A stretch of 32,000 bases of DNA from Thermodesulfobacteriota bacterium (GCA_026625185.1 CP113000.1:390001-422000), one strand, 5' to 3'; positions 4,676-24,586 are shown, numbered from the stretch's first letter. Numbers and translations: made by a program. Notes: generated by a model from the letters alone, not told the origin.

Positions 4676-4723
4676 TATCCGTCAATAAAAATTTTATTTA
4701 TCGATGGGAAACAACGTATTAAT

Positions 4724-6451: not shown

Positions 6452-9400
6452 AAAGTGAATTATTGGATAATTTTGTAGATTTGTCCGACTGGCAGGCCAT
6501 CGCCTCGGGACAGGCTCAAATTCACATCACTCCTGATCAGGGCCCTCATGGCAAGGCCATGCGGGTTGATTTCGATTTTAAGGGTGGTGGGGGGTTTGTG
6601 GTGGCCCGTAAAGCATTTTCCATGACCCTTCCGGAAAGTTACGCTTTTTCGTTTGGGATCAGGGGAGCGGCTCCCAGCAACATTTTTGAGTTCAAGCTGA
6701 TGGATGAGTCAGACAAGAATGTCTGGCGTTACCGAGAGGAGGCATTGAAATTTTCTGAAAACTGGCAGACTTTGAGAATCAAGAGCAGCCAGATCGCGTT
6801 TGCCTGGGGCCCACTGGGCGGCGGCCCTGCCCGGGAGGTCGTTGCGATCGAATACGTGATTGCCTCAGGCCCCGGTGGTAAAGGTACGGTTTGGATTGAC
6901 GACTTACGCTTCGAAGATCAAACCTATTGCCTTACCCCCAAGGTTCAGGCAAGCTCGGCTCAGCCCGGTTTCGAGCCACAGAATGTCATCGACCCTTCCG
7001 GATCGACCAGTTGGCGAAGCATAGCCTCGGATGGTCCCCAGCAAATTCTTATTGACTTTCAAACTGAACGGGAATACGGCGGTCTGGTTGTTCATTGGGA
7101 AAAGGATTTGCGGCCGCAATATTTTGATATCCAACTCTCAACAAATGCCAAGAATTGGAGCACCGTCTGGACTACTCAAAACGGCGTCGGTGAACGTACT
7201 TATGTCTACCTCCCTAATGCGGTCTCTCGTTTTATCCGGCTCAACCTGCGTCAGAATTTGAAAGGCCGTGGGGTCGGTATCATCGGCATCCAGGTCAAAC
7301 CCTATGATTTTTCCCGTTCCATCAATGCATTTTTTGGGGAGATCGCAAAGGAATCACCCAAGGGATTTTACCCGAAATATCTGTTTGCCCAACAGACTTA
7401 CTGGACCCTGGTCGGCACTGGTGAGGATATCACCCAGGCACTGTTCAACGAAGAAGGTATGGTGGAAGTCGACAAGGGGGCCTTTTCCATCGAACCTTTC
7501 CTTTATGTTGATGATCGCCTGATCACCTGGGCGGACGTCTCTCTTAAACAGGATTTGAAGGACGGATACCTGCCGATCCCATCCTCGGTATGGCAGACCG
7601 ATGAGTTGAGTTTGATAACCACGACCTTTGCTACTGTCAATTCCGATAAGTCAGTGCTTTACATTCGCTATCGACTCAGAAATACCTCGGCAAAATCAAG
7701 GCGAATGCGCTTTTTTGTCGGAATTCGGCCTTTCCAGGTAACACCCACATGGCAAAATTGGCATGCTTTCGGCGGTGTTAGCAAGATAATGGATTTAGAG
7801 CAACGAGCAGGCGAAATCTGGGTCAACAAATCCAAGCAAGTCATTCCATTGACAACCCCCAGCCAGTTCGGTGCGGTGACCTTCGTTCAGGGGCCCATAA
7901 CAGAATTTCTGAAAAACGGTGAACTCCCTGCGCAAACGGTTGTTAGCGATGACTTCGGTTACGCCTCCGGCGCACTTCGTTACGACCTGGATCTGACCAC
8001 AGACGCCGTAAAAGATATATTTCTTGCGATTCCCTTCGGAACTGTTGATATGGCGACCGTCCAAACCGCTTCTTCTGCAGGGGGGTCTATTGCTGCAGAG
8101 CAGTTCGACATTGCAGTACGAAAGTGGGAAGACAAGCTAAGTGCTTTCGAAATTCATCTCCCGGCCGAGTTCCAGGAAGTTGTTCATACCCTTAAAACCG
8201 CGGCCGCCCATATCCTGATCAATCGTGATGGTCCGGCCTTCCACCCCGGCCCGCGCCGCTATTCTCGTTCATGGATCAGGGACGGTGCCATGATGGGTGC
8301 GGCACTGCTTCGAATGGGCTTTACTTACGAAATGCGGGATTTCATCCGCTGGTATGCTGCCTATCAAACCGACGACGGAAACCTGCCGGACTGCGCAGAT
8401 CGCGAGGGTTGTGAGTGGTTACCGGAGTATGATTGCTGGGGCCAATTCATCTTCGCCATCATGGACTACTACCGGTTCAGCGGGGACAGGAAATTTTTGG
8501 TCGAGATGTGGCCCGCGGTGTTGAAGTCGGTGGGATTCATGGAAAACCTGCGCGGTCAACGTCTCACCCCGGCCTTTCAAACACCCGATAAAGTGGTCTA
8601 CTACGGGTTGTTGCCGGAGTCAATGAGCCACGAAGGCTACATGGCCCATCCGGTCCATGCCTTTTGGGATGATTTCTGGGCCCTGCGGGGACTCAAAGAT
8701 GCAATCACTATAGCCGAGGTCCTAGGCGATCAATTTCAGGCCCAACGCCTCTTGATCTTCACAGAATCATTCTGTAACACGCTGTTTAGATCATTAAACA
8801 AGACGATTCAGGATCACAACCTGGATTTCGTGCCCGGCTCGGTTGAGTTTGCGGATTTTGACCCTGCCGCCACCTCTGTGGCCATCTCCCTCCTTGACCA
8901 ACTGCATCATTTTCCCCAACCCGCAACCGACCAGACCTTCGACAAATACCTCATCGGCTTTCGTGATCGCGCCAGCGGCGGTATTTCTTGGAACAACTAC
9001 AGCGCTTACGAGATTCGCGTTATTGCTGCCCTCATTCGTCTCTGCAGAAGACAGGATGCTCATGAGTTGCTGGATTTCTTTTTGTCCGACCGTCGCATAC
9101 CTCCCTGGAATCAGTGGCCGGAAATCTCATGGTGTGACCCCAAAGGGCCCAGTTTCATCGGCGACATGCCCCATAGCTGGATCAGCGCGGAATATATCTT
9201 GGCAATTCGCAGTATGTTCGCTTACGAACGGGAAGAGGATCATGCCCTTGTAATTGGCGCAGGTATCCACGAAAAGTGGCTCACCGACACCAGAGGAGTA
9301 GTGGTCAAAAATCTCCCGACCCATTACGGCAAGCTTAATTATACCCTGCGTCGAGATGGGCCTTACACCCTGCGACTGATGCTTGGCGGCGATCTTACTT

Positions 9401-9543
9401 TGCCCCCCGGAAATATAGTCATCAAACCACCACTGCCGCGCCCCCTGATGCAGGTCGAGGTAAATGGCAGAAGGACGGATGCCTTTGACTCGGAAAGCGC
9501 CATCTGTGATGCGTTCCCGGCAGAAATAGCCATGAATTATTGA
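6448..9543 (+). CDS. Multidomain glycan-binding and glycosidase-like protein: N-terminal CBM-like beta-sandwich, F5/8 type C (discoidin) domain, and GH15/glucoamylase-like (alpha/alpha)6 domain
   Basis: 1031-aa ORF. Discoidin-like stretch: NVIDPSGSTSWRS...QILIDF...YGGLVVHWE...RFIRLNL. Six-hairpin glycosidase-like stretch: RRYSRSWIRDGAMMGAALLRMG. No signal peptide. 4-nt overlap with the upstream gene. Confidence 0.75.
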   Translation: MKSELLDNFVDLSDWQAIASGQAQIHITPDQGPHGKAMRVDFDFKGGGGFVVARKAFSMTLPESYAFSFGIRGAAPSNIFEFKLMDESDKNVWRYREEALKFSENWQTLRIKSSQIAFAWGPLGGGPAREVVAIEYVIASGPGGKGTVWIDDLRFEDQTYCLTPKVQASSAQPGFEPQNVIDPSGSTSWRSIASDGPQQILIDFQTEREYGGLVVHWEKDLRPQYFDIQLSTNAKNWSTVWTTQNGVGERTYVYLPNAVSRFIRLNLRQNLKGRGVGIIGIQVKPYDFSRSINAFFGEIAKESPKGFYPKYLFAQQTYWTLVGTGEDITQALFNEEGMVEVDKGAFSIEPFLYVDDRLITWADVSLKQDLKDGYLPIPSSVWQTDELSLITTTFATVNSDKSVLYIRYRLRNTSAKSRRMRFFVGIRPFQVTPTWQNWHAFGGVSKIMDLEQRAGEIWVNKSKQVIPLTTPSQFGAVTFVQGPITEFLKNGELPAQTVVSDDFGYASGALRYDLDLTTDAVKDIFLAIPFGTVDMATVQTASSAGGSIAAEQFDIAVRKWEDKLSAFEIHLPAEFQEVVHTLKTAAAHILINRDGPAFHPGPRRYSRSWIRDGAMMGAALLRMGFTYEMRDFIRWYAAYQTDDGNLPDCADREGCEWLPEYDCWGQFIFAIMDYYRFSGDRKFLVEMWPAVLKSVGFMENLRGQRLTPAFQTPDKVVYYGLLPESMSHEGYMAHPVHAFWDDFWALRGLKDAITIAEVLGDQFQAQRLLIFTESFCNTLFRSLNKTIQDHNLDFVPGSVEFADFDPAATSVAISLLDQLHHFPQPATDQTFDKYLIGFRDRASGGISWNNYSAYEIRVIAALIRLCRRQDAHELLDFFLSDRRIPPWNQWPEISWCDPKGPSFIGDMPHSWISAEYILAIRSMFAYEREEDHALVIGAGIHEKWLTDTRGVVVKNLPTHYGKLNYTLRRDGPYTLRLMLGGDLTLPPGNIVIKPPLPRPLMQVEVNGRRTDAFDSESAICDAFPAEIAMNY

Positions 9544-12745: not shown

Positions 12746-13243
12746 CTATCTTAAAACGCAAAAAAAAATTTGCTTTGTCACGCAGGAAGCAATATAAATA
12801 TGAACAAAAATGAAATGCTTGAATGATAGGGCTACGAAAAGACCGAATAAAAAAAAGACAAAGTAATCGAACAGCTGTCCCCACCCTTCCGTGAATTCGG
12901 TGCTGTGTGTGCTTGCGTCGCGAAAGCCTGCTTGTACCGCCAGGCCTGCGATGTAGGCTGCAATGAACATTCTCCCCCCGACAGTTTCACAGGCGAGTAC
13001 GCTGAGTACTGGTATCGCTACCAGCCCAAATTGTTGGGTGGATTCAACCATCCACTCTTTGCATCGGGCTGTGGCTAGGAGCAGACCACCAATCAGCCCC
13101 ACGAAAAGCCCCACCAACGCGCCCATCCCCAATTGTTCAAAAACAAAGTTTAGTAGGACTCGGCCGGCCCCCTCTGTGCCGATCTGGGACACTACGATTA
13201 AAAACATGAGAAAGGGGACTGAAAGCCCATCGTTTAGCCCTGC
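12746..13243 (-). pseudogene. Cation:proton antiporter (CPA1, Na+/H+ exchanger family) internal fragment
   Basis: The open frame reads AGLNDGLSVPFLMFLIVVSQ...GALVGLFVGLIGGLLL...FIAAYIAGLAV, typical central TM helices including the (E)SGLNDG motif. The N-terminal ~150 aa and the C-terminal helices are missing. Confidence 0.65.
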
Positions 13244-13299: not shown

Positions 13300-14205
13300 C
13301 TAAATTAAACGCTTCTTCCTTAACCTGATAAAAGGATTAAGGCCGGTAACCACAAACAACAGGGTTGCAGGAATCGGCAACGTAGCGGCTCCCGGGGTAA
13401 GCAACCCTCCTCCGTTCAGGCTAAAAATCCCTCCATTTAGCGCCAGCATGAGCGGACTGTTCGGATCGTAATAGAGCGTTAACCCATTGCCCCCCATAAT
13501 ATTGGTGATCTCCGAGTTGCTGATTACAAGTCCCATTATTTCATCAACATACAGTGCCCCACCCGGGATACCGTTGCCGTCAAAAAGAAAGATGCTTTGG
13601 CCGGTAATATCGAGGGTTTGCCAGGCAAAACTTTCGCTGCCGGGACCGCTATCTGCTCCCGGGAGGTAAAAATTGTGTTCACTGTCCGTACCGAAAATAA
13701 AGGCGAGCATGGCCCCATCAGTGTTCCAAAGGGGATTGGTGCCTTGGTTGATAAAGTCATTGCTGATGTTAAACACATCACCTGTTCCGCCCACAAGGTA
13801 CCCTGTCGGATCAACAATTAGGTCCGTAAAGGTCTGGGTGGCGGGGTCGCTGACGTAAGCGCCGTTGTTGGTAAACGTACCGGTATACGTAGCAGCGGTT
13901 CCGGTGACCTTCCAGGCGCCGTTGTTTTCCACGCTGCCGTTGACGACCCGGGTTCCGGCCCCACTCAGTGTCGTGGTGCCGGTGGCATTATTGACGATAT
14001 TGGATAAGCGGCAAAACCCTCTTTCTTTTGCTTGGGAATTTTTCTTCTTTGCTGGCTCAGGAAAATCTACCGGCCTTATCAAAAAGGTTTCCCCATCGGT
14101 AGGTTCAATTATCACCAACACTCCAGGCGGTAAGACGCTCGGCCTTGAGTGTTTACCCACCCAAGAGTTGACCAGCCACCCCTTCCCTCCCTTAGTGCTT
14201 TTCAT
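13300..14205 (-). CDS. PEP-CTERM-type (variant PIP-CTERM) surface protein with a Gly/Thr/Asn-rich beta-repeat body and an aberrant N-terminus
   Basis: The C-terminus ATLPIPATLLFVVTGLNPFIRLRKKRLI has the PEP-like motif, a TM helix and a basic tail, as in exosortase sorting signals. The body is NNATGTTTLSGAGTRVVNGSVENNGAWKVTGTAATYTGTFTNNGAY. The first ~65 aa have no signal peptide. Confidence 0.6.
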   Translation of the reverse strand: MKSTKGGKGWLVNSWVGKHSRPSVLPPGVLVIIEPTDGETFLIRPVDFPEPAKKKNSQAKERGFCRLSNIVNNATGTTTLSGAGTRVVNGSVENNGAWKVTGTAATYTGTFTNNGAYVSDPATQTFTDLIVDPTGYLVGGTGDVFNISNDFINQGTNPLWNTDGAMLAFIFGTDSEHNFYLPGADSGPGSESFAWQTLDITGQSIFLFDGNGIPGGALYVDEIMGLVISNSEITNIMGGNGLTLYYDPNSPLMLALNGGIFSLNGGGLLTPGAATLPIPATLLFVVTGLNPFIRLRKKRLI

Positions 14206-14255
14206 GAATCGTTTAAATAGAATCTGAGAGGAAAAACTTAGTAAAAAACAATTAA

Positions 14256-14276
14256 AGGGTAGTTATAGGGTAGTTA
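14256..14276. repeat. Tandem agggtagtta x2 (period 11) in the upstream region of the PEP-CTERM gene
   Basis: Read directly. The GGGTAGT core also occurs in a hairpin at 673-698. Confidence 0.5.
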
Positions 14277-14326
14277 AGCAGGAAATAGGAAACTGACCAT
14301 TTCTGTTAACCATCTGAAATCATTAA

Positions 14327-14368
14327 TGCGCCCAGGGCGACTCGAACGCCCAATCTACGGATTCGTAG
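14327..14368 (-). pseudogene. tRNA-Arg(ACG) 3' fragment, anticodon loop to discriminator; att-site-type remnant
   Basis: The minus strand reads CTACGAA (loop, anticodon ACG after U33), TCCGT, AGATT, GGGCG-TTCGAGT-CGCCC (T arm), TGGGCGC (acceptor 3' strand), A. The 5' anticodon-stem partner and the 5' acceptor strand GCGCCCA are absent, so the tRNA is not intact. Confidence 0.7.
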
Positions 14369-14393
14369 TCGCAACTAATGGGGTTCTAAGTTT

Positions 14394-14480
14394 TTAAGTT
14401 TGTTTGGAACTGATTAAGTTTGTTTGGGGAAATTAGCTTCCGGGAATGATTCATTTTTAGTCTGTTTTGGTCTGTTTTGG
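14394..14480 (+). repeat. Cluster of four direct repeats: ttaagtttgtttgg x2 (14394, 14414) and tctgttttgg x2 (14461, 14471)
   Basis: Read directly. All copies share the core TGTTT(T)GG in one orientation and lie 25-110 bp from the tRNA fragment. Confidence 0.7.
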
Positions 14481-14745
14481 ACTGTCTACTTGACAAAAAC
14501 CTTACAATTTGACTCTTGAGAGGTTAAGGCATTTTTTTTAAACCCCGTCTAATACCATTTTTGCACAGCTTTTTTTACCACCCTTAGGATAAACTCCTAC
14601 CTCTGGGAATTTTTCCTCAAAAAATGAGGTAATTCCCCTATAGACATGAAGTAAAATTCTTATTATTAAAAATAGAAAAACAGGACATTTTATCAGTAGG
14701 TTTCTAAAGGCCATGGGAAAAAAGATAAAAAAGGGGGAAAAAGAA

Positions 14746-15162
14746 CTACGCCGGAAAGATTTTGTAAAAAAAATGGCGTACGTGGCTCCAGCTATTGAAA
14801 TACTGGTTATCCCCAAATATACCTCTGCCCAAACCACAAGCTGTCCTTCGAGCTCTGGGCCCTCCTGTCGCAAACATAAATAGACTAACAGGACAATTAA
14901 CTGCCTTCCATTGCCTCCTCATCCCCCAAACCCTTATCGAGAAATCGGTAGGGGTTTTTATTCCCTGAAAATAAAGGCCTTGCCCTTCTTTGATGGGAAT
15001 ACCCAGATAATCGGCGATCTCTTTTCTGAAAATGGAAAACGTGGCCCCGGAATCAACTAAGGCTTTGACCTTCAGGCTCCCTTTGGGTCCGTTTAGCTCG
15101 ATGTCCACCATGGGATAGGACAGGTCTCCTTTTTTAAGATACGGGAATTCTTTCTCCATCAT
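14746..15162 (-). CDS. Retropepsin-like (clan AA) aspartic protease
   Basis: 138-aa ORF with the catalytic motif KALVDSGATFSI (D-S-G-A) at the usual distance from the N-terminus. A possible LLGR-type flap/C-terminal motif is CGLGRGIFGDNQYF. ATGA overlap with the upstream DUF5678 gene. The C-terminal third is less convincing. Confidence 0.7.
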   Translation of the reverse strand: MMEKEFPYLKKGDLSYPMVDIELNGPKGSLKVKALVDSGATFSIFRKEIADYLGIPIKEGQGLYFQGIKTPTDFSIRVWGMRRQWKAVNCPVSLFMFATGGPRARRTACGLGRGIFGDNQYFNSWSHVRHFFYKIFPA

Positions 15163-15362
15163 ATATACGGGCCTTCGCTTTTCCTGGGGATCAGGAGCAC
15201 TGAAGGCTTGTTTTTAAGGTTTTTAACTTTCTTCATCAGTTTTTTGAGAGTCCCCTGATGAGCTACGACCTTTCCATGGGCAAATGCCACCCACTCACCC
15301 GCATATTGGCCCAGCGAAACCGTCTTATGATTGGTTTTAATCGCAATCTTTGGTTTTTCCAT
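15159..15362 (-). CDS. DUF5678-like small protein
   Basis: The 67-aa sequence LGQYAGEWVAFAHGKVVAHQGTLKKLMKKVKNLKNKPSVLLIPRK fits the DUF5678 pattern (y.gkWVAi.dgkVva.g..l.el....p.i..vP). Confidence 0.6.
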   Translation of the reverse strand: MEKPKIAIKTNHKTVSLGQYAGEWVAFAHGKVVAHQGTLKKLMKKVKNLKNKPSVLLIPRKSEGPYI

Positions 15363-15861
15363 ATTTGTTATATTTAGTGATTATCATCCCTAACCCCACC
15401 GCATCGAACATGTTCTGGTGGAATTCTTCTTTCCAGGCCCGATCCTGAGTCAGGTAAACTTTAAGCTCCGGATATTTGGCCACCACCATCCGGGCCACTT
15501 CCTTTTTGCTCGCGTGGCCGTTGCCACAGATTATTTTTTTCATGGTGCTCGGGGCAAAGCTTACCACTCTAATCCCCTTCCTTCTTCCGATGGCCCTTAT
15601 CTCATCCACCAGGACATTTAAAAGGGAGGAATTCCGGTTATTGAAGAAAAAGGTCTTTTCCACCACCAGGATTTGAGGCCTAAAGCCATTGATCAATTTC
15701 AACACGATCTTTCTTCCCGTCCAGAGGATGTCATGGGGTGATCTCCGGTTTTAAATCACCTTAACCCCGGCATAAATAAGGGCACTGTTATCGAGGAACG
15801 CTACCCCCATGTGTCGGGTGCCGGGATCAATGGCCAGGATTTTTAATTTGTTTTTGAACAT
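15337..15861 (-). pseudogene. RuvC-like Holliday-junction resolvase with catalytic residues present, interrupted by one in-frame TAA
   Basis: Own translation from ATG 15861: MFKNKLKILAIDPGTRHMGVAFLDNSALIYAGVKVI*NRRSPHDILWTGRKIVLKLINGFRPQILVVEKTFF...KKIICGNGHASKKEV...FDAVGLGMI. The stop is at 15753-15751. The D (DPG), E (VVEK) and D (FDAV) positions are conserved. Confidence 0.75.
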
Positions 15862-15913
15862 GGATTTTGGGGTGGATGGGGAAGGGAGATCACTCCCCTC
15901 CCGCACAGAGTGA

Positions 15914-16411
15914 TTAATTATCTAAGCGATTGAAACAGACGACGCCTAAGGCAATTGCCTCAAACATCCTGACAAAGTAGGAGTTCTTGTTTTTCTTTTC
16001 CTTGCTTAATTCGTTGACCAGGAAGGGATAGCGGGAAACAACTGCTTCTTGAAGCTCCCTTTTATTCTTTATGCTTTTCTCTATGGAGAGAAACTTCTCC
16101 AGATCTTTCATGGGAAACTCAAATACCTTAAGTCTCTTTTGTTTTGAAAATTCCTTTAATCTGGTCGCCAATCGGTTCAAATTCTGAGAGCTCCGGGAAG
16201 GATGGAGTTTCTTGATGGCTAGGATATTGGGTTCGTAGCGGGCAATAAGATCGGAAAGAATGGCTTTAGTCTTTTTAAGCTTTTCTTTGAATTCCCTTCC
16301 CTCGATAACTTTTATTCTCAAATCTTTTAGTTCCGGACCTTGAAAGAAAGCTACACCTACGTATCGTGTTCCCGGATTAATTCCCAGGATCTTGGGAGAT
16401 TTCTTATGCAT
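15914..16411 (-). CDS. RuvC-like paralog with substituted catalytic residues
   Basis: 165-aa ORF: KILGINPGTRYVGVAF (Asn replaces the first catalytic Asp), ILAIKKLH (Lys replaces the Glu), MFEAIALGV (Glu at the last acidic position). Its ATG overlaps the upstream Rep-like stop by 8 nt. Confidence 0.75.
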   Translation of the reverse strand: MHKKSPKILGINPGTRYVGVAFFQGPELKDLRIKVIEGREFKEKLKKTKAILSDLIARYEPNILAIKKLHPSRSSQNLNRLATRLKEFSKQKRLKVFEFPMKDLEKFLSIEKSIKNKRELQEAVVSRYPFLVNELSKEKKNKNSYFVRMFEAIALGVVCFNRLDN

Positions 16412-17090
16412 ATTTTTGGATGAGATGATTGAACAATGCGCCTCGGCTTTTCTTTATTTTTTTATCGGGTATCTGCTTTACTTCTGATAGTACTCTTCTT
16501 AAAAGAGGCTCGGGAAACTTGTTGGAATACGAGATATATAATCCCAGCCCTTTGGGGTCTTTTAATGCTTCGGCTAATTCTAAGGCAAGGTACTCTGTTC
16601 TGGTTTTTGGTTTAAATTCTTTAAAAGAATTAAAAGTCGAATGAAAAAATTTTTTATTATCGATATCGTTTTTTAAAAAAGCTTTTTTTATCATTATATC
16701 GTTAGGAGAAAAACTCGCCTTTGATTCCTGGCTTGCTATAAAGGAATTTCGGCTCTCCGAGAACTTCTCTAAAGTATGATTTTTGATTCTTCTAAAGTAT
16801 GATTTTTGATACTTCTGAAGTTCCATATTTGGAGCACCTGGCAAGGCTTTCCATTTTTTTATCTGGATGGAGAGGTATCTTCCAGTGTTCTTAGTGGAGA
16901 TATAGTCATGCTTTTTAAGTAAACTTAACCACCGTAAGATCATTCCCCTTCTTAAGCACATATCCCGGCTTAGGGTTTTGATTTTTCTTAACAGATGTCC
17001 ATCTTCCCTGCTTGCATGAAGCAAAAGGTAGAGAAAAAGCCAGATGGCATTTTTCATCCTCCGGTAATGTTTGGCTTCCTGATCAACCAC
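16404..17090 (-). CDS. wHTH protein, putative replication or initiator-like protein of the element
   Basis: 228-aa ORF. The N-terminal segment AIWLFLYLLLHASREDGHLLRKIKTLSRDMCLRRGMILRWLSLLKKHDYI is winged-helix-like. The C-terminal segment LALELAEALKDPKGLGLYISYSNKFPEPLLRRVLSEVKQIPDKKIKKSRGALFNHLIQKY resembles tails seen on plasmid and phage replication-associated proteins. Function is inferred only. Confidence 0.55.
   Translation of the reverse strand: MVDQEAKHYRRMKNAIWLFLYLLLHASREDGHLLRKIKTLSRDMCLRRGMILRWLSLLKKHDYISTKNTGRYLSIQIKKWKALPGAPNMELQKYQKSYFRRIKNHTLEKFSESRNSFIASQESKASFSPNDIMIKKAFLKNDIDNKKFFHSTFNSFKEFKPKTRTEYLALELAEALKDPKGLGLYISYSNKFPEPLLRRVLSEVKQIPDKKIKKSRGALFNHLIQKYA
16765..16810. 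repeat. 23-bp tandem duplication inside the Rep-like ORF
   Basis: tctaaagtatgatttttgat is perfect at 16768-16787 and 16791-16810. The period is 23, not a multiple of 3, so the two copies are read in different frames (YQKSYFR versus IKNHTLE). Confidence 0.8.
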
Positions 17091-17153
17091 CAGTCCTTTC
17101 CAGACCGGTGTCCACCAATCTTTTTAGCTATTTGTAGTATTGGTCATAGCCCG

Positions 17154-17441
17154 TCATGCTCTTATTTTTCCTTCATGCCCGTTTTTAGTTTTTAAGCTTT
17201 CTTCTCTCATTCTGATCTCTCTTTTTAATTGCCCATAAAGTTCTCGAAATAAAAAAGCCACCGGTGTGCGGTAGACAATTTCAAGTTTTAAGGCATTAAT
17301 CAATCCGGGAAGTTTGACTCCGTGCTCATAACGAGAGAGGTTATTTGTCTTTTTCCAACCCATAAAATAGGCGGCGCTCTTTTGGGAGTGTCCCAGTTTC
17401 TTCCGGTAGGTCCTGGTAGAATCAACTTCAAAGTGCACCAT
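17154..17441 (-). CDS. XRE/Cro-CI-family helix-turn-helix transcriptional regulator
   Basis: The 95-aa sequence YRKKLGHSQKSAAYFMGWKKTNNLSRYEHGVKLPGLINALKLEIVY shows the HTH_3 pattern (lglSq...A..lG.....s.yE.G...P). It is the first gene of the minus-strand module. Confidence 0.75.
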   Translation of the reverse strand: MVHFEVDSTRTYRKKLGHSQKSAAYFMGWKKTNNLSRYEHGVKLPGLINALKLEIVYRTPVAFLFRELYGQLKREIRMREESLKTKNGHEGKIRA

Positions 17442-17480
17442 TTGAGAAAAGCATGCGACATGACAGGAATTCTGGTATGT

Positions 17481-18560
17481 TGAGAAGAACGACCAACTCG
17501 CAACCAGAAAGAGCCTGCCATGTCATATATACATTTAACAGAAAACGAACGATATGTCATCAGCCATTTAAATGTGGCTGGATTTAGTAAACGAGAAATT
17601 GCCCGCCGGATAAACCGAGATCACAGCACGGTCAGTCGTGAACTTAAACGCAACGGGCCGGAATATGATTGCACTGTTTATTGGTATGACTGGACGCATC
17701 CGGTAGCTCTAAAACGACGGCATCAGGCCAGGCATTATCGTCGGGAGGGCAACGAGCGCCTTGTTGATTATGTAAAAACAAAACTGAATCTGCAATGGTC
17801 TCCAGAGGAGATAAGCGATTATATGCGGATTAATTATCCTGATGATGAGACGATGCGAGTGTGCCATGAGACAATTTATCGCTGGATTTATAAGGATGCG
17901 AAGGTTAATGGCAAGCTTTATCTAAACCTGCGGCGGGGGAGGAAAAGGCGACGGCGCCAGAAACGGTATGGTTTGGGAAGGCGGTTTCTTGCCGGGCGCA
18001 AGAGAATTGCTCAACGACCTGAAATCGTGGAAGGGAGAAAACGATTTGGAGACTGGGAGGGCGATACGATCGAAGGCAAAAAAAGCAGTGGCTATATCGC
18101 GACGTTAGTCGAACGCAAGAGCCGCTACCTTTTGGCTGGCAAGCTGGAAAATAAGAAAGCTACGACATTGACAGATAAAAGCACTCAAATTTTCAGGCGC
18201 ATTCCTGGAATAATGCGGCAAACTTTAACGGTAGATAATGGAACAGAGTTTGCCCAATTTAAAGAACTTGAGGAAAAAACCAAACTCAGTATTTACTTTG
18301 CCGATCCTTATGCTGCATGGCAGCGAGGAGCCAATGAAAACACCAACGGATTACTGCGGCAGTATTTTCCGAAAGGAACTTACATGAGAAAAATTACCGA
18401 ACGTGATATTTCTCGTGCTGTTAAAAGGCTTAATAATCGGCCAAGAAAATCTCTCAACTACCGGACACCCTATGAAGTGTTCTGGAATGCAGCTCGTGGT
18501 GCACTTGCAATTTGAATTCACCCCAGAGATCATTTTTAATTGAGTTCCAACCTCTTCTCA
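17481..18560 (+). mobile_element. IS30-family insertion sequence (boundaries tentative)
   Basis: Imperfect terminal inverted repeats: TGAGAAGA-N6-AACTC at 17481 and its complement ending at 18560. The 1080-bp length is typical of IS30. No convincing target duplication was seen. Confidence 0.5.
17520..18515 (+). CDS. IS30-family DDE transposase, apparently intact
   Basis: 331-aa ORF. N-terminal HTH: LTENERYVISHLNVAGFSKREIARRINRDHSTVSRELKRNG. DDE region: GDWEGDTI, LTVDNGTEFA, ANENTNGLLRQYFPKG. Confidence 0.92.
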   Translation: MSYIHLTENERYVISHLNVAGFSKREIARRINRDHSTVSRELKRNGPEYDCTVYWYDWTHPVALKRRHQARHYRREGNERLVDYVKTKLNLQWSPEEISDYMRINYPDDETMRVCHETIYRWIYKDAKVNGKLYLNLRRGRKRRRRQKRYGLGRRFLAGRKRIAQRPEIVEGRKRFGDWEGDTIEGKKSSGYIATLVERKSRYLLAGKLENKKATTLTDKSTQIFRRIPGIMRQTLTVDNGTEFAQFKELEEKTKLSIYFADPYAAWQRGANENTNGLLRQYFPKGTYMRKITERDISRAVKRLNNRPRKSLNYRTPYEVFWNAARGALAI

Positions 18561-18880
18561 TATCCCTTCTCTATTTATAGTTTAAGAATAGCAGAGAGGA
18601 GACAGGGAAAAAGCAGGGAGAATTTGCCTAAAGAGGCAAGTTAGTTACTAGTTTAAAATTTATGGTAAGACTTATGAGAATGAACTGGTGATAATGGGAA
18701 AATGGATACTCGGGGCAGCTGGCCGTGGCCAGAAGGGCTCCTAACTAAAGACTGATCACAATAAAAAAAGGCCACTACATATAAGTCTTTTTTTGTTTTT
18801 ATTAAAAATATTTATTTTTTATTCTTCAAATCATCCTAGCAAATAGGCGGAGAAATGCAAGAGAAGTACGGACACGGTTC

Positions 18881-18896
18881 AAGTTTGTTTTGGACT
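18881..18896 (+). repeat. Fifth copy of the AAGTTTGTTT(T)GG(ACT) motif (also TGTTTGG at 19002-19008)
   Basis: aagtttgttttggact shares aagtttgttt with 14396 and 14416, and tgttttggact with 14473-14483. Same orientation. Confidence 0.55.
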
Positions 18897-19066
18897 ATCG
18901 GCTATAAAACTACATGCAAAAAAATCCTCTTTTAAATTTTTTTGCGCTTGATTCGGGAAACATTTAATAAATATTTAAAACTGGATATTAGAGTAGTTAC
19001 CTGTTTGGATAAATTATCCCTCCTTTTTGTTATGGTTCTTTCCTCTATCCTAAATGGTAAAAGAAA

Positions 19067-19273
19067 ATGAAACTCAACAATGAAACAATTGAGAAATTCC
19101 AAAGGATCTATTTTGAAGAATTTGGCGAAAGGATTTCGAAGGAACAAGCGCAGGAGAAGTTTTTGCGATTGGCCAACTTTTTAAGAGTTATTATCCAGTT
19201 CCCGGCAAAAAAGCTGGAACCAAAGAGCTCCCAATCCTCCGGCTTGACCAAACCCCTGCAAATGGTAGAATAG
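19067..19273 (+). CDS. Small helical hypothetical protein upstream of the recombinase
   Basis: 68-aa ORF, MKLNNETIEKFQRIYFEEFGERISKEQAQEKFLRLANFLRVI..., with a weak RBS. Position and size resemble small accessory proteins next to serine recombinases. Function unknown. Confidence 0.4.
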   Translation: MKLNNETIEKFQRIYFEEFGERISKEQAQEKFLRLANFLRVIIQFPAKKLEPKSSQSSGLTKPLQMVE

Positions 19274-19344
19274 AAAAATCTCTTATTTAGTATTCTCCCT
19301 GGAGCATAGGATACATTTCATCCTTCCTCTGGGGACATGAATTT

Positions 19345-20975
19345 ATGTCCCACTATCTCATTTACTGCCGTAGGTCTTCAGAGTCGGAAGAGCGGCAGAT
19401 TCTTTCCATTGAATCCCAAGAAAAAGAATTAAAAGAACTGGCCAAAAGACTAAAACTGGATATTTCTGAAATCCTCACTGAGTCCCAGTCCGCCAAATAT
19501 CCGGGGAGACCGGTTTTTAACAACCCAATGAAACAGGTTTATAAAGGCCAGGTAAAAGGGATTATCAGCTGGAAACTGGATCGTTTGGCACGCAACCCGA
19601 TTGACGGATCCGCCCTGATCTGGGCCTTGGACCGCGGGAAGATTTCTGAAATCATCACTCCTCATAACACCTTTTTAAACAACAGCAACGACAAGTTCCT
19701 CATGCAGCTTGAATTCGGAATGGCCAAAAAGTACGTGGACGATTTGAGTGATAATGTCAAGCGGGGAAACCGGACCAAGCTAGAGAATGGCTGGATTCCC
19801 GGGATTCCGCCTTTGGGGTATCTCAATGAGCCCAAAGAAAGAACCATAATAAAGGACCCGGAAAGATTCGCGTTGGTGAGGAGAATGTGGGATCTCCTGC
19901 TGCAAGGTACAGCGCCATCAAGAATCCAAAAAATGGCCACTAACGAATGGGGGCTTCGAACCAGGGTCCATAAAAAAACCGGGGGCCAACCTTTAAGTAT
20001 AAATAGTCTATACAAGATCTTTGGCACCCCTTTCTACTACGGGCTAATTAAACGAAAAGAGGGCGTGTTTAAGGGAAAACATGAACCTATGATTAATGAG
20101 GAGGAATTCTGGAAAGCTCAGGAAATCCTCGGAAGGAAAGGAAGACCACGGCCAAGAAAACACCAGTTTGCCTTTACCGGACTTATCCGCTGTAGTGAAT
20201 GCGGATCCATGGTCACTGCCGAGGAAAAAGATAACCAGTACGGCTCCCATTACATCTAATATAGGTGCACAAAAAAGAAAAAAAATTACCGCTGCCGTCA
20301 ACCGTACATCAATCTTGATGACTTAGAGACCCAAATTTCAACCTACCTTACTAAGATCCATGTCCCGGAGAGATTGCTCAAGTTTGCTCTCGACTACCTG
20401 AAAGAAGGAGAAAAGGAAGAGCAAGAGAAACACCATGATATTGAGAGATCTTTGAGAAAAGCCCTCGGTGACTGCCAAAAGAAAATTGAGAACCTGAACC
20501 AGATGAGAATGAGAGAACTCATTGATGATGGGGAATACCTTACGGAAAAGAAAAAACTTCTTGAAGAAAAAATCAGGCTTGAGGATAGCGTAAAAAGTGG
20601 AAGCCAAAAGGGAGAAAAGGCTATTCAGCTTACCGAAGAAATGTTTATGTTTGCGAGCCAGGCTAAGGAACGCTTTCAAAATGGGTCTTTGGAGGACAAG
20701 CGGTCAATCCTTCTGGGACTTGGCTCGAACTTTTTTCTAAAGAACAAAAAACTCTTTATCCAAACGGAAAACCCTTCCTCATCCTGGAGGAAGGATTGAA
20801 TAAGATTAATGGTGGAATGACCAGGCTCGAATTTACGAAAAATGCCTTATCAGAAAAGAAAAATGAACTATCTTTACCTTCATTTCAACACTTGTGGACC
20901 CTAGTGGAGGACGTTCGAACTTTTTACAAAACTACAAAATCAGCTTGCTACCTACCGGAACTGGAACGGTATTGA
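19345..20975 (+). pseudogene. Large serine recombinase with one in-frame TAA and one frameshift
   Basis: Resolvase catalytic N-terminus YCRRSSESEERQILSIESQ; recombinase domain; zinc ribbon LIRCSECGSMV...GSHYI*YRCTKKK, with TAA at 20257-20259 where Tyr is expected. The coiled-coil continues in the same frame to 20799. The tail KPFLILEEGL...ELERY* is in the -1 frame (shift in the gaaaa run near 20766-20772). Confidence 0.85.
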
Positions 20976-21119: not shown

Positions 21120-21893
21120 CTAACCTCTTCCATTTTCTCCCCACCTCCGGCACGGAGCTTCATACTCGCAATCCTTACAGAGGAAGCTTGACCGGGGGAA
21201 GAAAATCCCTGACCGGATGCCGCGGAGCACCTGACTGGCAAGGTGAAAGAAGCGCTGGTAATCAGCCCTGGTTCTCGTGGTCTCAAACATGATCATTTTT
21301 GGCTTTTTGGTCTTTACAAACTCAATGAGCTTGAGAAGTTTTGGCGGCCTTTGGTAAAGCATCTCGTAGGCGTAGCTATAAATCGTAAGCTGGAGATGGT
21401 CATGAACCTCCCGTGCATCCATGGTCTGGCCGGAGGTCTTAAATTCCGCGATAATCTCATCTTTTTCCACCGCATCAAAGAATCCTTCCAGATTTATCCC
21501 CAGGCTCTCCTTTTTGGCAGGATTGATAAGAGGAATGTTAAAGTGAACATCCGTTGCTTTTACATTTTTTAGGGGATCCTCAAAATAGCGAGCGAGCATT
21601 TCCTTGCCCATAACCGTGACCTTCATTTCATCCTCGCCTTCTTTGAAGCGAAGCTCGGCATCCACCTTCTGGCTGTACCAATCAGCCCGGAAGATCCGAA
21701 AAAGCTTATCCAGGGTGACTCCGTTTCCGTTCATCTTTTGTTTGTGAAACCAGGAGATGCTGGAATGGATGGCCCCGCCCAAGGCCAAGCCTGAACCCTT
21801 AAAAGGTTTGGGGATTAGATCAATGTACTGAAATTTATATTTCAAACTGCACTGGAGATAAAGGTTTATCTGGCTGTTAGAAAGGTGCTCCAT
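21120..21893 (-). CDS. PD-(D/E)XK nuclease, Cas4/RecB-exonuclease-like, with a 4-Cys cluster
   Basis: SNSQINLYLQCSLKYKFQYI (N-terminal Cys), GFFDAVEKDEIIAEFKTSG (D...E.K), QLTIYSYAY (QxxxY), and C-terminal CKDCEYEAPC. Start placed at MEHLSNS, preceded by AAGGAGGTGAGG; the track ORF starts at 21932. Confidence 0.8.
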   Translation of the reverse strand: MEHLSNSQINLYLQCSLKYKFQYIDLIPKPFKGSGLALGGAIHSSISWFHKQKMNGNGVTLDKLFRIFRADWYSQKVDAELRFKEGEDEMKVTVMGKEMLARYFEDPLKNVKATDVHFNIPLINPAKKESLGINLEGFFDAVEKDEIIAEFKTSGQTMDAREVHDHLQLTIYSYAYEMLYQRPPKLLKLIEFVKTKKPKMIMFETTRTRADYQRFFHLASQVLRGIRSGIFFPRSSFLCKDCEYEAPCRRWGENGRG

Positions 21894-21942
21894 CTTCCTC
21901 ACCTCCTTTGGCTTCCGCCAGCAGGCGTTCAATCACCTTGAT

Positions 21943-22572
21943 ATGCTCTACTGCTCCTTGAATGAACTGCAAGCCCATGAAGCTGAGTTTGAGGATTGTT
22001 TTCTTTCGGAAACCGAGATGAATTTAAAAGTAAAGAGTCTTCAGCTTCGAGACTTTGTCCGGCATAAAGACGACCGGATCATCGGCGGGCTCCTGCTCAC
22101 CAATTCGGAAACCGGGCACCGGGCCTTGCGGGTGGAACCGCGTGTATTTCGGGTCCGGTGCACCAACGGGATGGTGATTGAGGAGTTTTTGACCCGGCAG
22201 ATCCATCTTGGCAATGGCAATGATGAAGGCGATGAGATGGTTTATTTATCCATCCGGCGTTCCATCAAAGAGCTTTTCGGAAGATTCGGAGAAATCATTG
22301 AGATCTTGCGGGAGACCACTGAAATCAAGGTCAAAAACGCAACCAAAGTGATTAACAATGTGGTGGAGCACTACCGCCTGAGCGAAACCCAGAAAGAAAA
22401 CATCCTCATTGCTTTTGGGGCGGAGCCGGAAGAGGACAAATACGGGATTGCTAACGCCGTAACCCAAGCCGCCCAAAGAGAGGAAACTTGGGAAAAAAGC
22501 CTTGAGCTTGAGCGGATCGGCGGGAAGCTCGTTACCCTCTCCCCGGAAACCTTCAAAACCTGGGATGAGTAA
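21943..22572 (+). CDS. DUF932-family protein (phage/plasmid-associated), probably N-terminally short or truncated
   Basis: GGLLLTNSETGHRALRVEPRVFRVRCTNGMV...QIHLG matches the DUF932 core (NS.DGs.a......fR..C.NG.v...H.g). Only ~55 aa precede the core, which is less than I would expect for this family. Confidence 0.65.
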   Translation: MLYCSLNELQAHEAEFEDCFLSETEMNLKVKSLQLRDFVRHKDDRIIGGLLLTNSETGHRALRVEPRVFRVRCTNGMVIEEFLTRQIHLGNGNDEGDEMVYLSIRRSIKELFGRFGEIIEILRETTEIKVKNATKVINNVVEHYRLSETQKENILIAFGAEPEEDKYGIANAVTQAAQREETWEKSLELERIGGKLVTLSPETFKTWDE

Positions 22573-22588
22573 AAGAAATGAGAACGAA

Positions 22589-22879
22589 ATGAAAATCGCG
22601 ATAAAAAGAAAAGTATTGTTGGAAGGTTTTGAAATTGCCAAGGACTCAGTGGGAAAACAAACCGCTTTGCCGGTTCTTAAAAATGTCAAACTGAAAGCCC
22701 GGGGCGGAGTCCTTGAACTTTTTACCACCAATCTTTCCATTGGGACCATGATTTCGCTTAAAGATTTAGCTATCGCCTGCGAGGGTGAGGCCTTATGCGA
22801 CGCAATAAAGTTTATGGCCATCGTGAGGGAACTTCCGGAAAATGACGTGAAGATCGAGACCGAAAAAAAGGCCACCTGA
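22589..22879 (+). CDS. dnaN: DNA polymerase III beta sliding clamp, domain-I part (0-frame product)
   Basis: MKIAIKRKVLLEGFEIAKDSVGKQTALPVLKNVKLKARGGVLELFTTNLSIG... has the DnaN N-terminal pattern. It ends at TGA 22877-22879, two codons after the A7 run. An alternative start at 22565 overlaps the DUF932 stop. Confidence 0.8.
   Translation: MKIAIKRKVLLEGFEIAKDSVGKQTALPVLKNVKLKARGGVLELFTTNLSIGTMISLKDLAIACEGEALCDAIKFMAIVRELPENDVKIETEKKAT
22864..22870 (+). promoter_or_regulatory. A_AAA_AAG heptamer in the 0 frame: candidate -1 ribosomal frameshift site, or a homopolymer indel
   Basis: The 0-frame codons are gaA AAA AAG gcc acc TGA. A -1 slip reads GGC CAC CTG ATG GTA..., which restores a continuous clamp (..IETEKKGHLMVKCEKSHFKL..). 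Confidence 0.4.
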
Positions 22880-23757
22880 TGGTAAAATGCGAGAAATCTC
22901 ATTTCAAGCTCATGACCATGCAACCGGAAGAATTTCCCTGCCCGCCAACGGTTCCGGAACAGGATTTTTTCCCTGTCGGAGAACAATTCTTTCAGTATCT
23001 AAGTAAAGTCAAATACGCTGCTTCAAAGGATGAGCTAAGGCATAACCTCAATGGCGTCTTTCTGGGAGCAGAGGTAGTGGCCACCGACGGTCACCGGATG
23101 GCAATAATCAAGAAAAGTCTGGGGTTTATGGATGTTCTCGTTCCTCTGGATTTTATCAGCCTTATTTTGAAACTCAAAAGCAGAGATGAGAGGAACACCT
23201 TTCAAGCCGGGTGTTCCAACAACTTGATTATCATCCGGTCCCATGGCCTCACTTTGTTTAGCCGATTGATTGATGCGGAGTTTCCCGATTACTCCCAGGC
23301 GATCCCTGATGATCCTTCCCGATACGCCCTAATGGCAAGAAAGGACTTAATGCAGGCCCTAAAAAGGATCATGCTCATGAGCGGAAAAGAGTGCGCGGTG
23401 AAGTTCGAATTTAACCCCGGATCCCTCGTTCTTTCGTCCTTTACTCCTAACCTGGGAAACGCCTCGGAAAAAATGGAGATTGAATACCGGTCAGAGAGTT
23501 ATGAGACTTCTTTTACTGTCGGCCTTAACGGAAAGTTCCTACTGGATATGCTGGAGGCCTTGGATGAAGATCAGGTCAAGCTTCAGATGATAAACGATGA
23601 ATCGCCCTTAATGATCGAAGAGCATGGTTCCCTTCACATCCTTATGCCCCTTCATCTCTTGGAAGCTGAACCCGAGGCTCAGTCTGAAACTGAAATTGAA
23701 CTTGCCACTGAATCCGAGTCAGAACCGGAGTTTGTTGAAGAGAAGGAAGCAGCTTAA
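22879..23757 (+). CDS. dnaN: DNA polymerase III beta sliding clamp, domains I(end)-II-III with an acidic C-terminal tail
   Basis: The 292-aa sequence KSHFKLMTMQPEEFP, LNGVFLGAEVVATDGHRMA, RLIDAEFPDYSQAIP and SPLMIEEHGSLHILMPL matches DnaN throughout. The extra tail is EAEPEAQSETEIELATESESEPEFVEEKEAA. Confidence 0.85.
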   Translation: MVKCEKSHFKLMTMQPEEFPCPPTVPEQDFFPVGEQFFQYLSKVKYAASKDELRHNLNGVFLGAEVVATDGHRMAIIKKSLGFMDVLVPLDFISLILKLKSRDERNTFQAGCSNNLIIIRSHGLTLFSRLIDAEFPDYSQAIPDDPSRYALMARKDLMQALKRIMLMSGKECAVKFEFNPGSLVLSSFTPNLGNASEKMEIEYRSESYETSFTVGLNGKFLLDMLEALDEDQVKLQMINDESPLMIEEHGSLHILMPLHLLEAEPEAQSETEIELATESESEPEFVEEKEAA

Positions 23758-23928: not shown

Positions 23929-24294
23929 TCAACTGTCGTGTTGGCATTTTCCGGTTGCCTCAAGGAGCGTCTGGAGTTTCGCACGAAGATCAGGCAGCTT
24001 AGTTGTTGCAACATCCCAGACGATGGTGTAATCAACTCCAAAATAATCATGGATAAGCCTATCGCGCATTCCAGTGAGCTTACGCCACTCGATATCCGAT
24101 TGCATCCTCTTGACATCTTCTGGTAGTTTTTTTGAAGCTTCGCCGATAATCTCAAGGCTTCGAACAAATGCCCTCTTTAGCGACGGATTCCTGACAAAGG
24201 AACCATAATCCATACCCGATATTTGGGTTAAGATGTAGTCAATCTCGTCCAGGATGTGATGGATGCATTCATGCGGCGATAGGAACACGTTCAA
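23929..24294 (-). CDS. hepT: HepT-like (DUF86) RNase toxin
   Basis: 121-aa ORF with the Rx4HxY motif in GMRDRLIHDYFGVD. It overlaps the upstream MNT gene by 26 nt. Confidence 0.9.
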   Translation of the reverse strand: MNVFLSPHECIHHILDEIDYILTQISGMDYGSFVRNPSLKRAFVRSLEIIGEASKKLPEDVKRMQSDIEWRKLTGMRDRLIHDYFGVDYTIVWDVATTKLPDLRAKLQTLLEATGKCQHDS

Positions 24295-24586
24295 CCTCTC
24301 TGAGAATATGTGGACCGATGTATGGACTGAGAGCCTCTAACGTAATCAATTCGACTTTGCGCCCTAGGAGTTCTTCAAGTAGAAATGCGACTTCCATAAA
24401 ATTGTCGAAGGTGTGCTTTTCAGGCATGAATTCCACCAGAACATCAATGTCACTCAAGGGCGTCTGGTCACCTCGAACAAATGAACCGAACAATCCAATA
24501 TTTTTAACACCATAGAATGCAAGTTGTTTTTGGTTCTCTAAAATGCGCTGAAATATTAACTCTTTAGTGTTAGTTTTTTTGACCAT
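24269..24586 (-). CDS. mntA: MNT-type nucleotidyltransferase antitoxin
   Basis: 105-aa ORF with GLFGSFVRGDQTPLSDIDVLVEF (the GSxxRG...DxD polymerase-beta-fold NTase motif). Confidence 0.9.
   Translation of the reverse strand: MVKKTNTKELIFQRILENQKQLAFYGVKNIGLFGSFVRGDQTPLSDIDVLVEFMPEKHTFDNFMEVAFLLEELLGRKVELITLEALSPYIGPHILREVERVPIAA

Follow-up and report, generated by a model that had tools for sequence, protein, structure and literature searches.

Several described systems resemble parts of the locus treated here. Lambdoid phages and siphophages of Gram-positive bacteria classically order a repressor (CI/Cro type), an O-like or DnaD-like replisome organiser with an in-gene origin and a Holliday-junction resolvase (RusA or RuvC), and in phage lambda the origin iterons are located within the initiator gene O. 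Actinomycete elements of the pSAM2 type integrate and replicate, and for movement they rely on a single DNA translocase; TraD/FtsK-like translocases can, as in these elements, move double-stranded DNA without a relaxase. We analysed a stretch of 32,000 nucleotides (nt) from a Thermodesulfobacteriota bacterium (GCA_026625185.1, CP113000.1:390001-422000; the window, with positions counted from its first nucleotide), in which six co-oriented open reading frames (ORFs) on the minus strand (14538-17441) encode an XRE-family regulator, a winged helix-turn-helix (wHTH) protein, two RuvC-like proteins (RuvC#1 and RuvC#2), a DUF5678 protein and a retropepsin-like aspartic protease. We propose, with a probability of roughly 70%, that this region is the inactivated remnant of a chromosome-integrated mobile element, and that the element belongs to an undescribed family found in many anaerobic, mostly uncultivated bacterial phyla.

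The element as a whole comes closest to integrative mobilisable elements (IMEs) or integrative conjugative elements (ICEs), and has a phage-like replication block. Like IMEs and ICEs, members of the family are chromosomally integrated and possess recombinases, a coupling-protein-like ATPase, an initiator of their own and variable cargo between the backbone genes. They differ in that genes for a relaxase or mating pore and an oriT went unrecognised in the family, that its RuvC pair does not figure among known backbone components and that the hosts are uncultivated anaerobes; moreover, the window copy is without the ATPase. The likeness to pSAM2-type elements is one in spirit, and the family's presumed initiator is wHTH/DnaD-like rather than RepSA or a relaxase. 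With the phage replication modules the family shares the order of an XRE gene, a DnaD/O-like wHTH gene with in-gene repeats whose period is not a multiple of three, and a downstream RuvC-type resolvase. In contrast to these modules, it lacks genes for virion, packaging or lysis functions, has no relatives in phage collections, carries an extra RuvC that is predicted to be dead, and adjoins a TraD-like ATPase and recombinases of the serine or tyrosine type.

An earlier note, made from the DNA sequence of the window, had named no described element or defence system of this composition, and none came to light: we found no paper on the element family, on a dead RuvC or on DUF5678, and PADLOC was negative for the core. 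What is new are the family-level features, above all the dead RuvC paralog and the repeats inside the wHTH gene. Together they define the backbone of an unnamed family of integrated elements, which consists of an XRE gene, a repeat-bearing wHTH gene and a predicted dead RuvC followed by a second RuvC, frequently accompanied by a serine recombinase and a TraD-like ATPase. With defence-like cargo, the family appears to move among more than ten phyla, mostly of uncultivated anaerobes.

A conserved core in a larger integrated element

ORF calling reproduced the six minus-strand ORFs of the earlier note and, to the nucleotide, the three overlaps it had listed, i.e., 8 nt between the wHTH and RuvC#1 genes (16404-16411), 26 nt between the RuvC#2 and DUF5678 genes (15337-15362) and an ATGA between the DUF5678 and protease genes (15159-15162). 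Its family calls hold in Pfam for the XRE regulator, the two RuvC-like proteins (E=2.2e-4 and 2.1e-8), DUF5678 and the protease. The wHTH call is weak in Pfam and is backed by the PHROG match of a paralog (see below).

Relatives of RuvC#1 are numerous. The protein collection contained 217 close ones, and a profile search of 1.84 billion representatives gave 131 clusters at E<=1e-30. By pattern scanning, 27 species-representative genomes of more than ten phyla were confirmed to carry a relative, and the taxa include Planctomycetota (among them Scalindua), Aminicenantes, Actinomycetota, Saccharibacteria, Syntrophobacteraceae, Bacteroidota, Nitrospirota, Clostridia, Paceibacterota, Elusimicrobia and others. 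Relatives were likewise confirmed in another 333 metagenomic stretches, of which 80 loci were kept. Gene linkage was counted in 108 non-redundant loci with six-frame ORFs and phmmer. The recurrent order is XRE–wHTH–RuvC-like–RuvC. An XRE gene lies upstream in 62/62 loci with room for it, a recognisable wHTH gene is adjacent to RuvC#1 in 56/74 loci (a wHTH-type gene was assigned by clustering in 107/121) and overlaps it by 35 nt in 40/56, and RuvC#2 follows RuvC#1 directly in 65/87. The linkage is thus conserved and the genes are not scattered singly, so that the first of the two conditions under which the earlier note would have been refuted does not hold. The full six-gene order was found in at least seven independent loci and in an intact paralog. 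Since DUF5678 and the protease are present in a minority of loci, we regard the six-gene order as an extended, recurring form of a four-gene core.

The core is part of something larger. In relatives, a large serine recombinase, mostly accompanied by a small protein, is encoded upstream in the opposite direction; recombinase and partner together were counted there in 17/37 loci. This also applies to the window, where a large serine recombinase (a pseudogene) and a conserved partner of 68 amino acids (aa) lie directly upstream (19067-20975), so that the earlier note was wrong in assuming an element without an integrase. The window recombinase is 73% identical to an intact protein of 533 aa in locus L038. 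The 68-aa protein adjoins the recombinase in 16-17 related loci and has no family match in the profile libraries. Between the serine recombinase and the XRE gene there is a slot for variable cargo, which encodes RecD2, TrmB, PIN_12, Fic, AbiEii, HxsD with a radical-SAM protein, Hypoth_Ymh or SNase. Individual slots with defence-like genes extend over 3629-8735 in L038, 1-8547 in L040, 2879-8443 in L001 and 794-5295 in L004.

Downstream of the core, relatives encode a bPH_2 membrane protein, a membrane protein of 219 aa and an ATPase of 700-1140 aa. Models of TraD/VirD4 coupling proteins match the ATPase, which in many cases carries a fused HTH of excisionase type. In some loci it is followed by a tyrosine integrase; L001, L004 and L122-124 are loci with such an integrase. 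A compact example of about 10.5 kb (L122-124) consists of a serine recombinase, a 71-aa protein, a pilin-like protein, wHTH, XRE, RuvC, DUF5678, protease, bPH_2, the 219-aa protein, the TraD-like ATPase and a tyrosine integrase, next to host ksgA. Where each flank measured 9 kb or more, 20/28 loci have the TraD-like ATPase and 19/28 a recombinase. Related elements span 10-20 kb, and the carriers include Mb-scale chromosomal contigs.

From this layout we propose how an intact member would function. The XRE-type repressor would control the operon, and the serine recombinase (in relatives also the tyrosine recombinase) would perform excision and integration. The wHTH initiator may bind the 22-23-nt iterons within its own gene, recruit host replication proteins and start replication of the excised element. 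RuvC#1, presumably dead and translationally coupled to the initiator, may act together with the active RuvC to bind and resolve branched or multimeric intermediates, in which case it would be a junction-binding partner or modulator. The TraD/VirD4-like translocase would transfer the DNA to a new cell. DUF5678 and the protease would form an optional, separately mobile cassette, and the likeliest role for such a pair is addiction or defence.

Several observations count against this proposal. Firstly, the precomputed Pfam lists show no relaxase, VirB4-type or mating-pore gene at any locus. Secondly, the RuvC pair is not constant: RuvC#2 is absent from 22/87 loci, L125 has an active-type RuvC only, and L122 has one hybrid RuvC (7248-7787) with K at the first catalytic position and with E and D kept. 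Thirdly, only 16/62 unique wHTH genes contain repeats of period 22-23 that pass the threshold of at least 80% identity, and the window wHTH protein itself matches Pfam HTH_36 weakly and under the cut-off (E=0.014). Lastly, a comparison of the ends of L004 and L122 for direct repeats of attachment-site (att) type gave noise only, and there is a single tRNA-like fragment in the window.

The window copy is an inactivated relic with at least six lesions. It can be compared with an intact six-gene paralog that occurs in the same assembly on a different contig (L001, 8960-11650; GCA_029216075.1, JARDUI010000046.1; a Thermodesulfobacteriota metagenome-assembled genome); the two RuvC-like proteins are also recorded together on one 3.3-Mb contig. 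Upstream, L001 encodes TrmB, RecD2, PIN_12 and an intact serine recombinase of 505 aa, and downstream a TrwB-like ATPase and a tyrosine integrase. Window and L001 are 84.6% identical at the DNA level over 14956-17413, and the alignment resumes at 18522-18644. Because the alignment breaks and resumes beyond an insertion sequence (IS) of the IS30 family, the IS lies inside the XRE gene, which it interrupts at codon ~13, and the true 5' end of the gene lies on its far side (Table 1). In the annotated XRE ORF, codons 1-10 (17412-17441) come from the end of the IS30. The XRE gene at the head of the module is real, and conserved upstream of the core, whereas the ORF that the earlier note placed there is broken and begins with IS sequence.

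Codon-by-codon comparison located two nonsense codons within the core: Arg to TAA at codon 8 of the wHTH gene (17124-17126) and AAA (Lys) to TAA at codon 37 of the RuvC#2 gene (15751-15753). The serine recombinase gene has a third, TAT to TAA at codon 305 (20257-20259), and a frameshift near 20730-20800. Homology of the protease is limited to 14956-15162 (~69 codons), and DNA homology to the paralog stops at 14956. The nearly invariant protease motifs GYLH and ILGRNNFF...FLITFNEK are absent from the window ORF and no other frame holds them; no homolog was found for 14538-14955. The possibility that the C-terminal half of the protease is divergent rather than lost was rejected since GYLH and ILGRNNFF are nearly invariant and absent. 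Stop-codon recoding was rejected as an explanation of the three in-frame TAA codons, which we read as ordinary nonsense mutations, because RuvC#1 ends in TAA where its homologs end and because the IS, the deletion and the frameshift show general decay. In total four of the six genes of the module are damaged, and only RuvC#1, DUF5678 and the additional 68-aa gene are intact. The same lesions are present in four independent assemblies of one population (L007-L010). Apart from the serine recombinase, no remnant of an integrase or of a TraD-like ATPase is left in the window. Annotation should treat the locus as a set of pseudogenes from a decayed element and not as a working replicon.

The DUF5678–protease pair and the putative initiator gene

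DUF5678 and the protease follow RuvC#2 in 7/51 loci. The pair also occurs without the RuvC core (L126/L127), and L040 has a retropepsin-like aspartic protease upstream of the core with no DUF5678 called alongside (assigned by Pfam alone); both arrangements suggest a separately mobile cassette. The two genes are small, overlapping and strongly conserved (55-80% identity), and a homolog search with DUF5678 returned 16 close relatives only. As in type II toxin-antitoxin cassettes, there are two small genes, here overlapping by ATGA, that move as a unit and are often decayed. Unlike in these cassettes, a retropepsin-like protease is not an established toxin.

It is possible, though on balance doubtful, that the module, or at least its DUF5678–protease end, is an anti-phage defence or toxin-antitoxin system and does not serve element housekeeping. 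The size, overlap and conservation of the two genes are consistent with this, as are their occurrence away from the core and the defence-like cargo in the variable regions of the host elements. However, PADLOC has no defence-system model for the core proteins: it returned generic HTH matches for XRE and TrmB only, and a marginal match of the protease to PDC-M52B (E=0.005). No known toxin or antitoxin family matches DUF5678 or the protease, and a search of the literature on DUF5678 or on retropepsin-like toxin-antitoxin pairs found nothing relevant. The fold search was uninformative as well; the DUF5678 model (predicted local distance difference test, pLDDT, 74.6) had no PDB match below E=2. 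Furthermore, the homologies of the four-gene core are of replication type and not of defence type, and the pair is restricted to the minority of loci given above.

The wHTH gene is one source of these replication-type homologies. The L001 protein, which is 79% identical to that of the window, matches phrog_7498 'DnaD-like helicase loader' (E=6.7e-12) and, at about 1e-3, O-like phage initiators in PHROG. Relatives carry HTH_36 in precomputed Pfam, and NCBIfam gave no match for the wHTH protein. The Rep-like assignment of the earlier note is in this way supported by the paralog, which points to a protein of the replication-initiator type. The gene contains tandem repeats with a period of 22-23 nt at nt ~300-380, with two copies of 23 nt in the window and in L012, three of 23 nt in L004 and three of 22 nt in L122. 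Repeats of this period occur in none of 188 RuvC genes, as compared with the 16 of 62 unique wHTH genes mentioned above. The repeat sequences vary between loci and their position is conserved. Since the period is not a multiple of three and position is kept while sequence varies, a function at the DNA level seems likely. Most simply, the repeats would be origin iterons inside the initiator gene, and we propose them as candidates for this role.

Temperate phages and phage satellites would likewise have an in-gene origin in their early (lysogeny-replication) region, of which the locus could be a remnant. Gene order and in-gene repeats match the lambda O/ori and replisome-organiser layout, the initiator and RuvC#2 have PHROG matches (RuvC#2 to phrog_159, E=2.5e-18), and the XRE regulator is weakly RstR-like. 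Nevertheless, there is no capsid, tail, terminase or lysis gene in ~120 loci with flanks of up to 10 kb, and the neighbours are TraD/VirD4-like ATPases rather than packaging genes. A tblastn search with RuvC#1, wHTH and protease found no match in a phage collection of 50,697 records, and of 35 hits in a pattern scan of IMG/VR none was confirmed. Together with the plasmid search below, these results indicate that the module belongs to no known prophage or plasmid family; membership in a well-known prophage family would have refuted the earlier note. A phage origin of the locus is therefore unlikely, and we retain the reading as an integrated element that has a phage-like replication block.

The RuvC pair

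The AlphaFold model of RuvC#1 (pLDDT 87.9) has a RuvC fold. Its best PDB matches are the RuvC structures 7xhj, 6lw3 and 1hjr (D. radiodurans, P. aeruginosa and E. coli), with template modelling (TM) scores of 0.68-0.78, also given as 0.73-0.78. RuvC#2 matches RuvC chains by sequence (E=3e-8). Both paralogs score far under the cut-offs of the NCBIfam RuvC equivalog, and both are element-borne and distinct from host ruvC. Compared with the bacterial RuvC proteins of E. coli, T. thermophilus and D. radiodurans, the fold is the same for RuvC#1, sequence similarity extends to both paralogs, and RuvC#2 shares D/E/D at catalytic positions, whereas RuvC#1 has N/K/R/E.

A hidden Markov model (HMM) alignment of RuvC#1 with E. 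coli RuvC places INPG opposite IDPG and AIKKL opposite AIEQV. The four catalytic positions were read from a residue-count alignment, in which the C-terminal part of the E. coli reference is provisional and the N-terminal two thirds agree with the HMM alignment. At the position of E. coli D7, the RuvC#1 family has N in 94/96 unique sequences and the RuvC#2 family D in 67/69. At E66 these are K (96/96) and E (69/69), at D138 R (91/96) and N (65/69, with a His two residues before), and at D141 E (95/96) and D (67/69). Among representatives at 50% identity, the first catalytic position of RuvC#1 is mostly N or S, and D in two only. RuvC#1 does not have the catalytic acidic tetrad: three of the four acidic residues are lost in the family, and the fourth is a conservative Asp-to-Glu replacement. 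We therefore predict from these residues that RuvC#1 is a pseudonuclease whose active site was lost family-wide.

RuvC acts as a dimer with two sites that cut in turn (PMC2670506). An engineered RuvC with the changes D7N/E66D (RuvCDef) binds and traps Holliday junctions in vivo without cutting them (PMC5222578). Because this engineered protein binds and does not cut, junction binding without cleavage would be the simplest expectation for RuvC#1. RuvC#1 naturally carries the D7N-type change and, beside an active RuvC, looks like a natural counterpart of the engineered junction-trap mutants, a likeness by residues and gene arrangement alone. We found nothing relevant in the literature on inactive RuvC paralogs in mobile elements. 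Among eukaryotic proteins, Mus81-Eme1 and XPF-ERCC1 are heterodimers of a nuclease and a pseudonuclease. The likeness to these lies in an inactive paralog encoded beside an active one, and again extends to residues and gene arrangement.

The pair could also have a more active role. RuvC#1 and RuvC#2 could form a heterodimer with a single active site, which the wHTH protein recruits to the in-gene repeats and which nicks the origin for replication or transfer of rolling-circle type, in place of a relaxase. Dead and active paralogs are adjacent in three quarters of the loci (65/87), RuvC#1 is translationally coupled to the initiator, no relaxase was seen in relatives that commonly have a coupling-protein-like ATPase, and RuvC itself is a dimer whose two sites cut in turn (PMC2670506). 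If true, this would be a previously unknown, relaxase-independent start of replication or transfer in integrative elements with a TraD-like ATPase only. However, the scheme is purely inferential, RuvC#1 stands by itself in a quarter of the loci, and in some others the sole RuvC is an active or a hybrid one. In addition, as stated in the opening paragraph, translocases of the TraD/FtsK type need no relaxase for double-stranded DNA. We consider a nicking heterodimer quite improbable and prefer junction processing by the pair within an element moved by its recombinases and translocase.

Ends, feature coordinates and neighbouring genes

The coordinates of all features are collected in Table 1. The core is flanked by short repeats. 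Exact copies of the 10-mer AAGTTTGTTT start at 14396, 14416 and 18881, words of the type GTCTGTTTTGG are present at 14460, 14470 and 18883, and a 15-nt pattern gave 2 matches where 0.09 were expected. The block 14385-14500 is 75% identical to a non-coding part of L004 (551-651), where it is inverted and on the other side of the core. The repeats which the earlier note described as iteron-like are thus real, the 10-mer being present three times. Across ~120 related loci, however, neither AAGTTTGTTT nor GTCTGTTTTGG is a family-wide motif, and we therefore did not call them iterons; better candidates for iterons lie inside the wHTH gene. The flanking repeats may serve as a binding site or mark an end of the element.

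The earlier note's own reading, a self-sufficient plasmid- or virus-like replicon of ~3.3 kb with only the wHTH protein and the RuvC homologues and without a recombinase, fits the tightly packed, overlapping genes, the short repeats on both sides and the many short contigs among relatives, but it is highly improbable, given the serine recombinase and partner directly upstream here and in many relatives, the extension of relatives to 10-20 kb with TraD-like ATPases and tyrosine integrases, the location of the core on long contigs up to Mb chromosomes (short contigs being usual in metagenomes), the lack of terminal overlaps that would indicate circular or free forms in all 98 loci of at least 2.5 kb (most of which are excerpts of longer contigs, so that few could show circularity), and the absence of matches to RuvC#1, wHTH or protease in PLSDB plasmids or of confirmed ones in IMG/VR.

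One end of the integrated element may be marked by a fragment at 14325-14383 that resembles the 3' half of a tRNA. It occurs once in the window and folds marginally better than shuffled sequences (z = -1.8); ARAGORN and Rfam called no tRNA in the window, including this segment. L028 has a homologous piece (18917-19046) with compensatory changes in the T-stem and a conserved flank (AAAGGGTAG.TATAGGGTAG), which is oriented relative to the L028 RuvC#1 gene as in the window and follows this gene at a distance of 8.5 kb on its downstream side, and in L004 a tRNA-Thr adjoins the integrase. With low confidence, we suggest that the fragment is an att remnant and thus an element end. If so, a deletion would have removed everything between the protease and this end.

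Table 1. Features of the locus with their positions in the window, strand, and supporting matches or remarks
Feature	Position	Strand	Evidence or remark
tRNA-3'-half-like fragment, candidate att remnant, low confidence	14325-14383	-	T-arm GGGCG/TTCGAGT/CGCCC and acceptor strand
Non-coding conserved block with short repeats	14385-14500		AAGTTTGTTT x2, GTCTGTTTTGG x2
Retropepsin-like aspartic protease, truncated	ORF 14746-15162	-	Pfam Asp_protease_2 E=3.9e-5; DSGA retained
DUF5678 small protein, intact	15159-15362	-	Pfam E=1.6e-11
RuvC#2, active-type RuvC pseudogene	15337-15861	-	ORFs split: 15751-15906 and 15337-15705
RuvC#1, RuvC-fold paralog, intact, 165 aa	15914-16411	-	N12/K67/R148/E151 for catalytic D/E/D/D
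wHTH gene, putative DnaD/O-like replication initiator	16404-17147	-	TAA at codon 8; ORF restart GTG 17090, 228 aa (16404-17090)
Two tandem 23-nt repeats inside wHTH gene, candidate origin iterons	16768-16813		96% identical
XRE-family regulator, 3' part	17154-17441	-	Pfam HTH_3 E=1e-5; homology break 17413
IS30-family insertion sequence	17415-18522	+	Transposase 17520-18515, 331 aa, HTH_38 and rve; 26-nt terminal inverted repeats
Displaced XRE 5' end (to ~18561) and conserved upstream region	18523-18644	-	blastn to L001, L004, L038, L040, L091, L107 and others
Partial third copy of repeat motif (AAGTTTGTTTTGGAC)	18874-18899		Motif search
68-aa conserved protein gene preceding serine recombinase, intact	19067-19273	+	Divergent from core
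Large serine recombinase pseudogene	19345-20975	+	Pfam Resolvase/Recombinase/Zn_ribbon_recom
PD-(D/E)XK nuclease (21120-21932), DUF932 (21943-22572), DnaN-like clamp	21120-23757		Pfam

Beyond the serine recombinase, the PD-(D/E)XK nuclease, the DUF932 protein and the DnaN-like clamp are probably further genes of the same element. Near the core, the nuclease is found again in 12 related loci (E~1e-100), DUF932 is present in L030, and the nuclease and DUF932 of the window are 55-69% identical to core-proximal proteins in L012 and L030. The DnaN-like clamp of the window is split into ORFs of 96 aa and 292 aa. Further on, a toxin-antitoxin pair of an MNT nucleotidyltransferase and a HepT-like protein is encoded on the minus strand (23929-24586; from gene calls and Pfam matches, both of the identical loci L007 and L008). 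A promoter and terminator scan of 14200-19100 was uninformative, with 2 promoter-like sites where 9 were expected.

On the other side of the core, a Na+/H+ exchanger fragment of 153 aa (12746-13207, minus strand) covers profile positions 166-301 of 375 only and is a truncated host gene beside the island. The region 1295-9543 encodes a glycoside phosphorylase of SOGP/GH94 type (1126 aa), an ABC exporter and an F5/8-type-C protein of 1031 aa. Its G+C content is 0.50-0.57, as compared with 0.37-0.46 over 9.5-21 kb.

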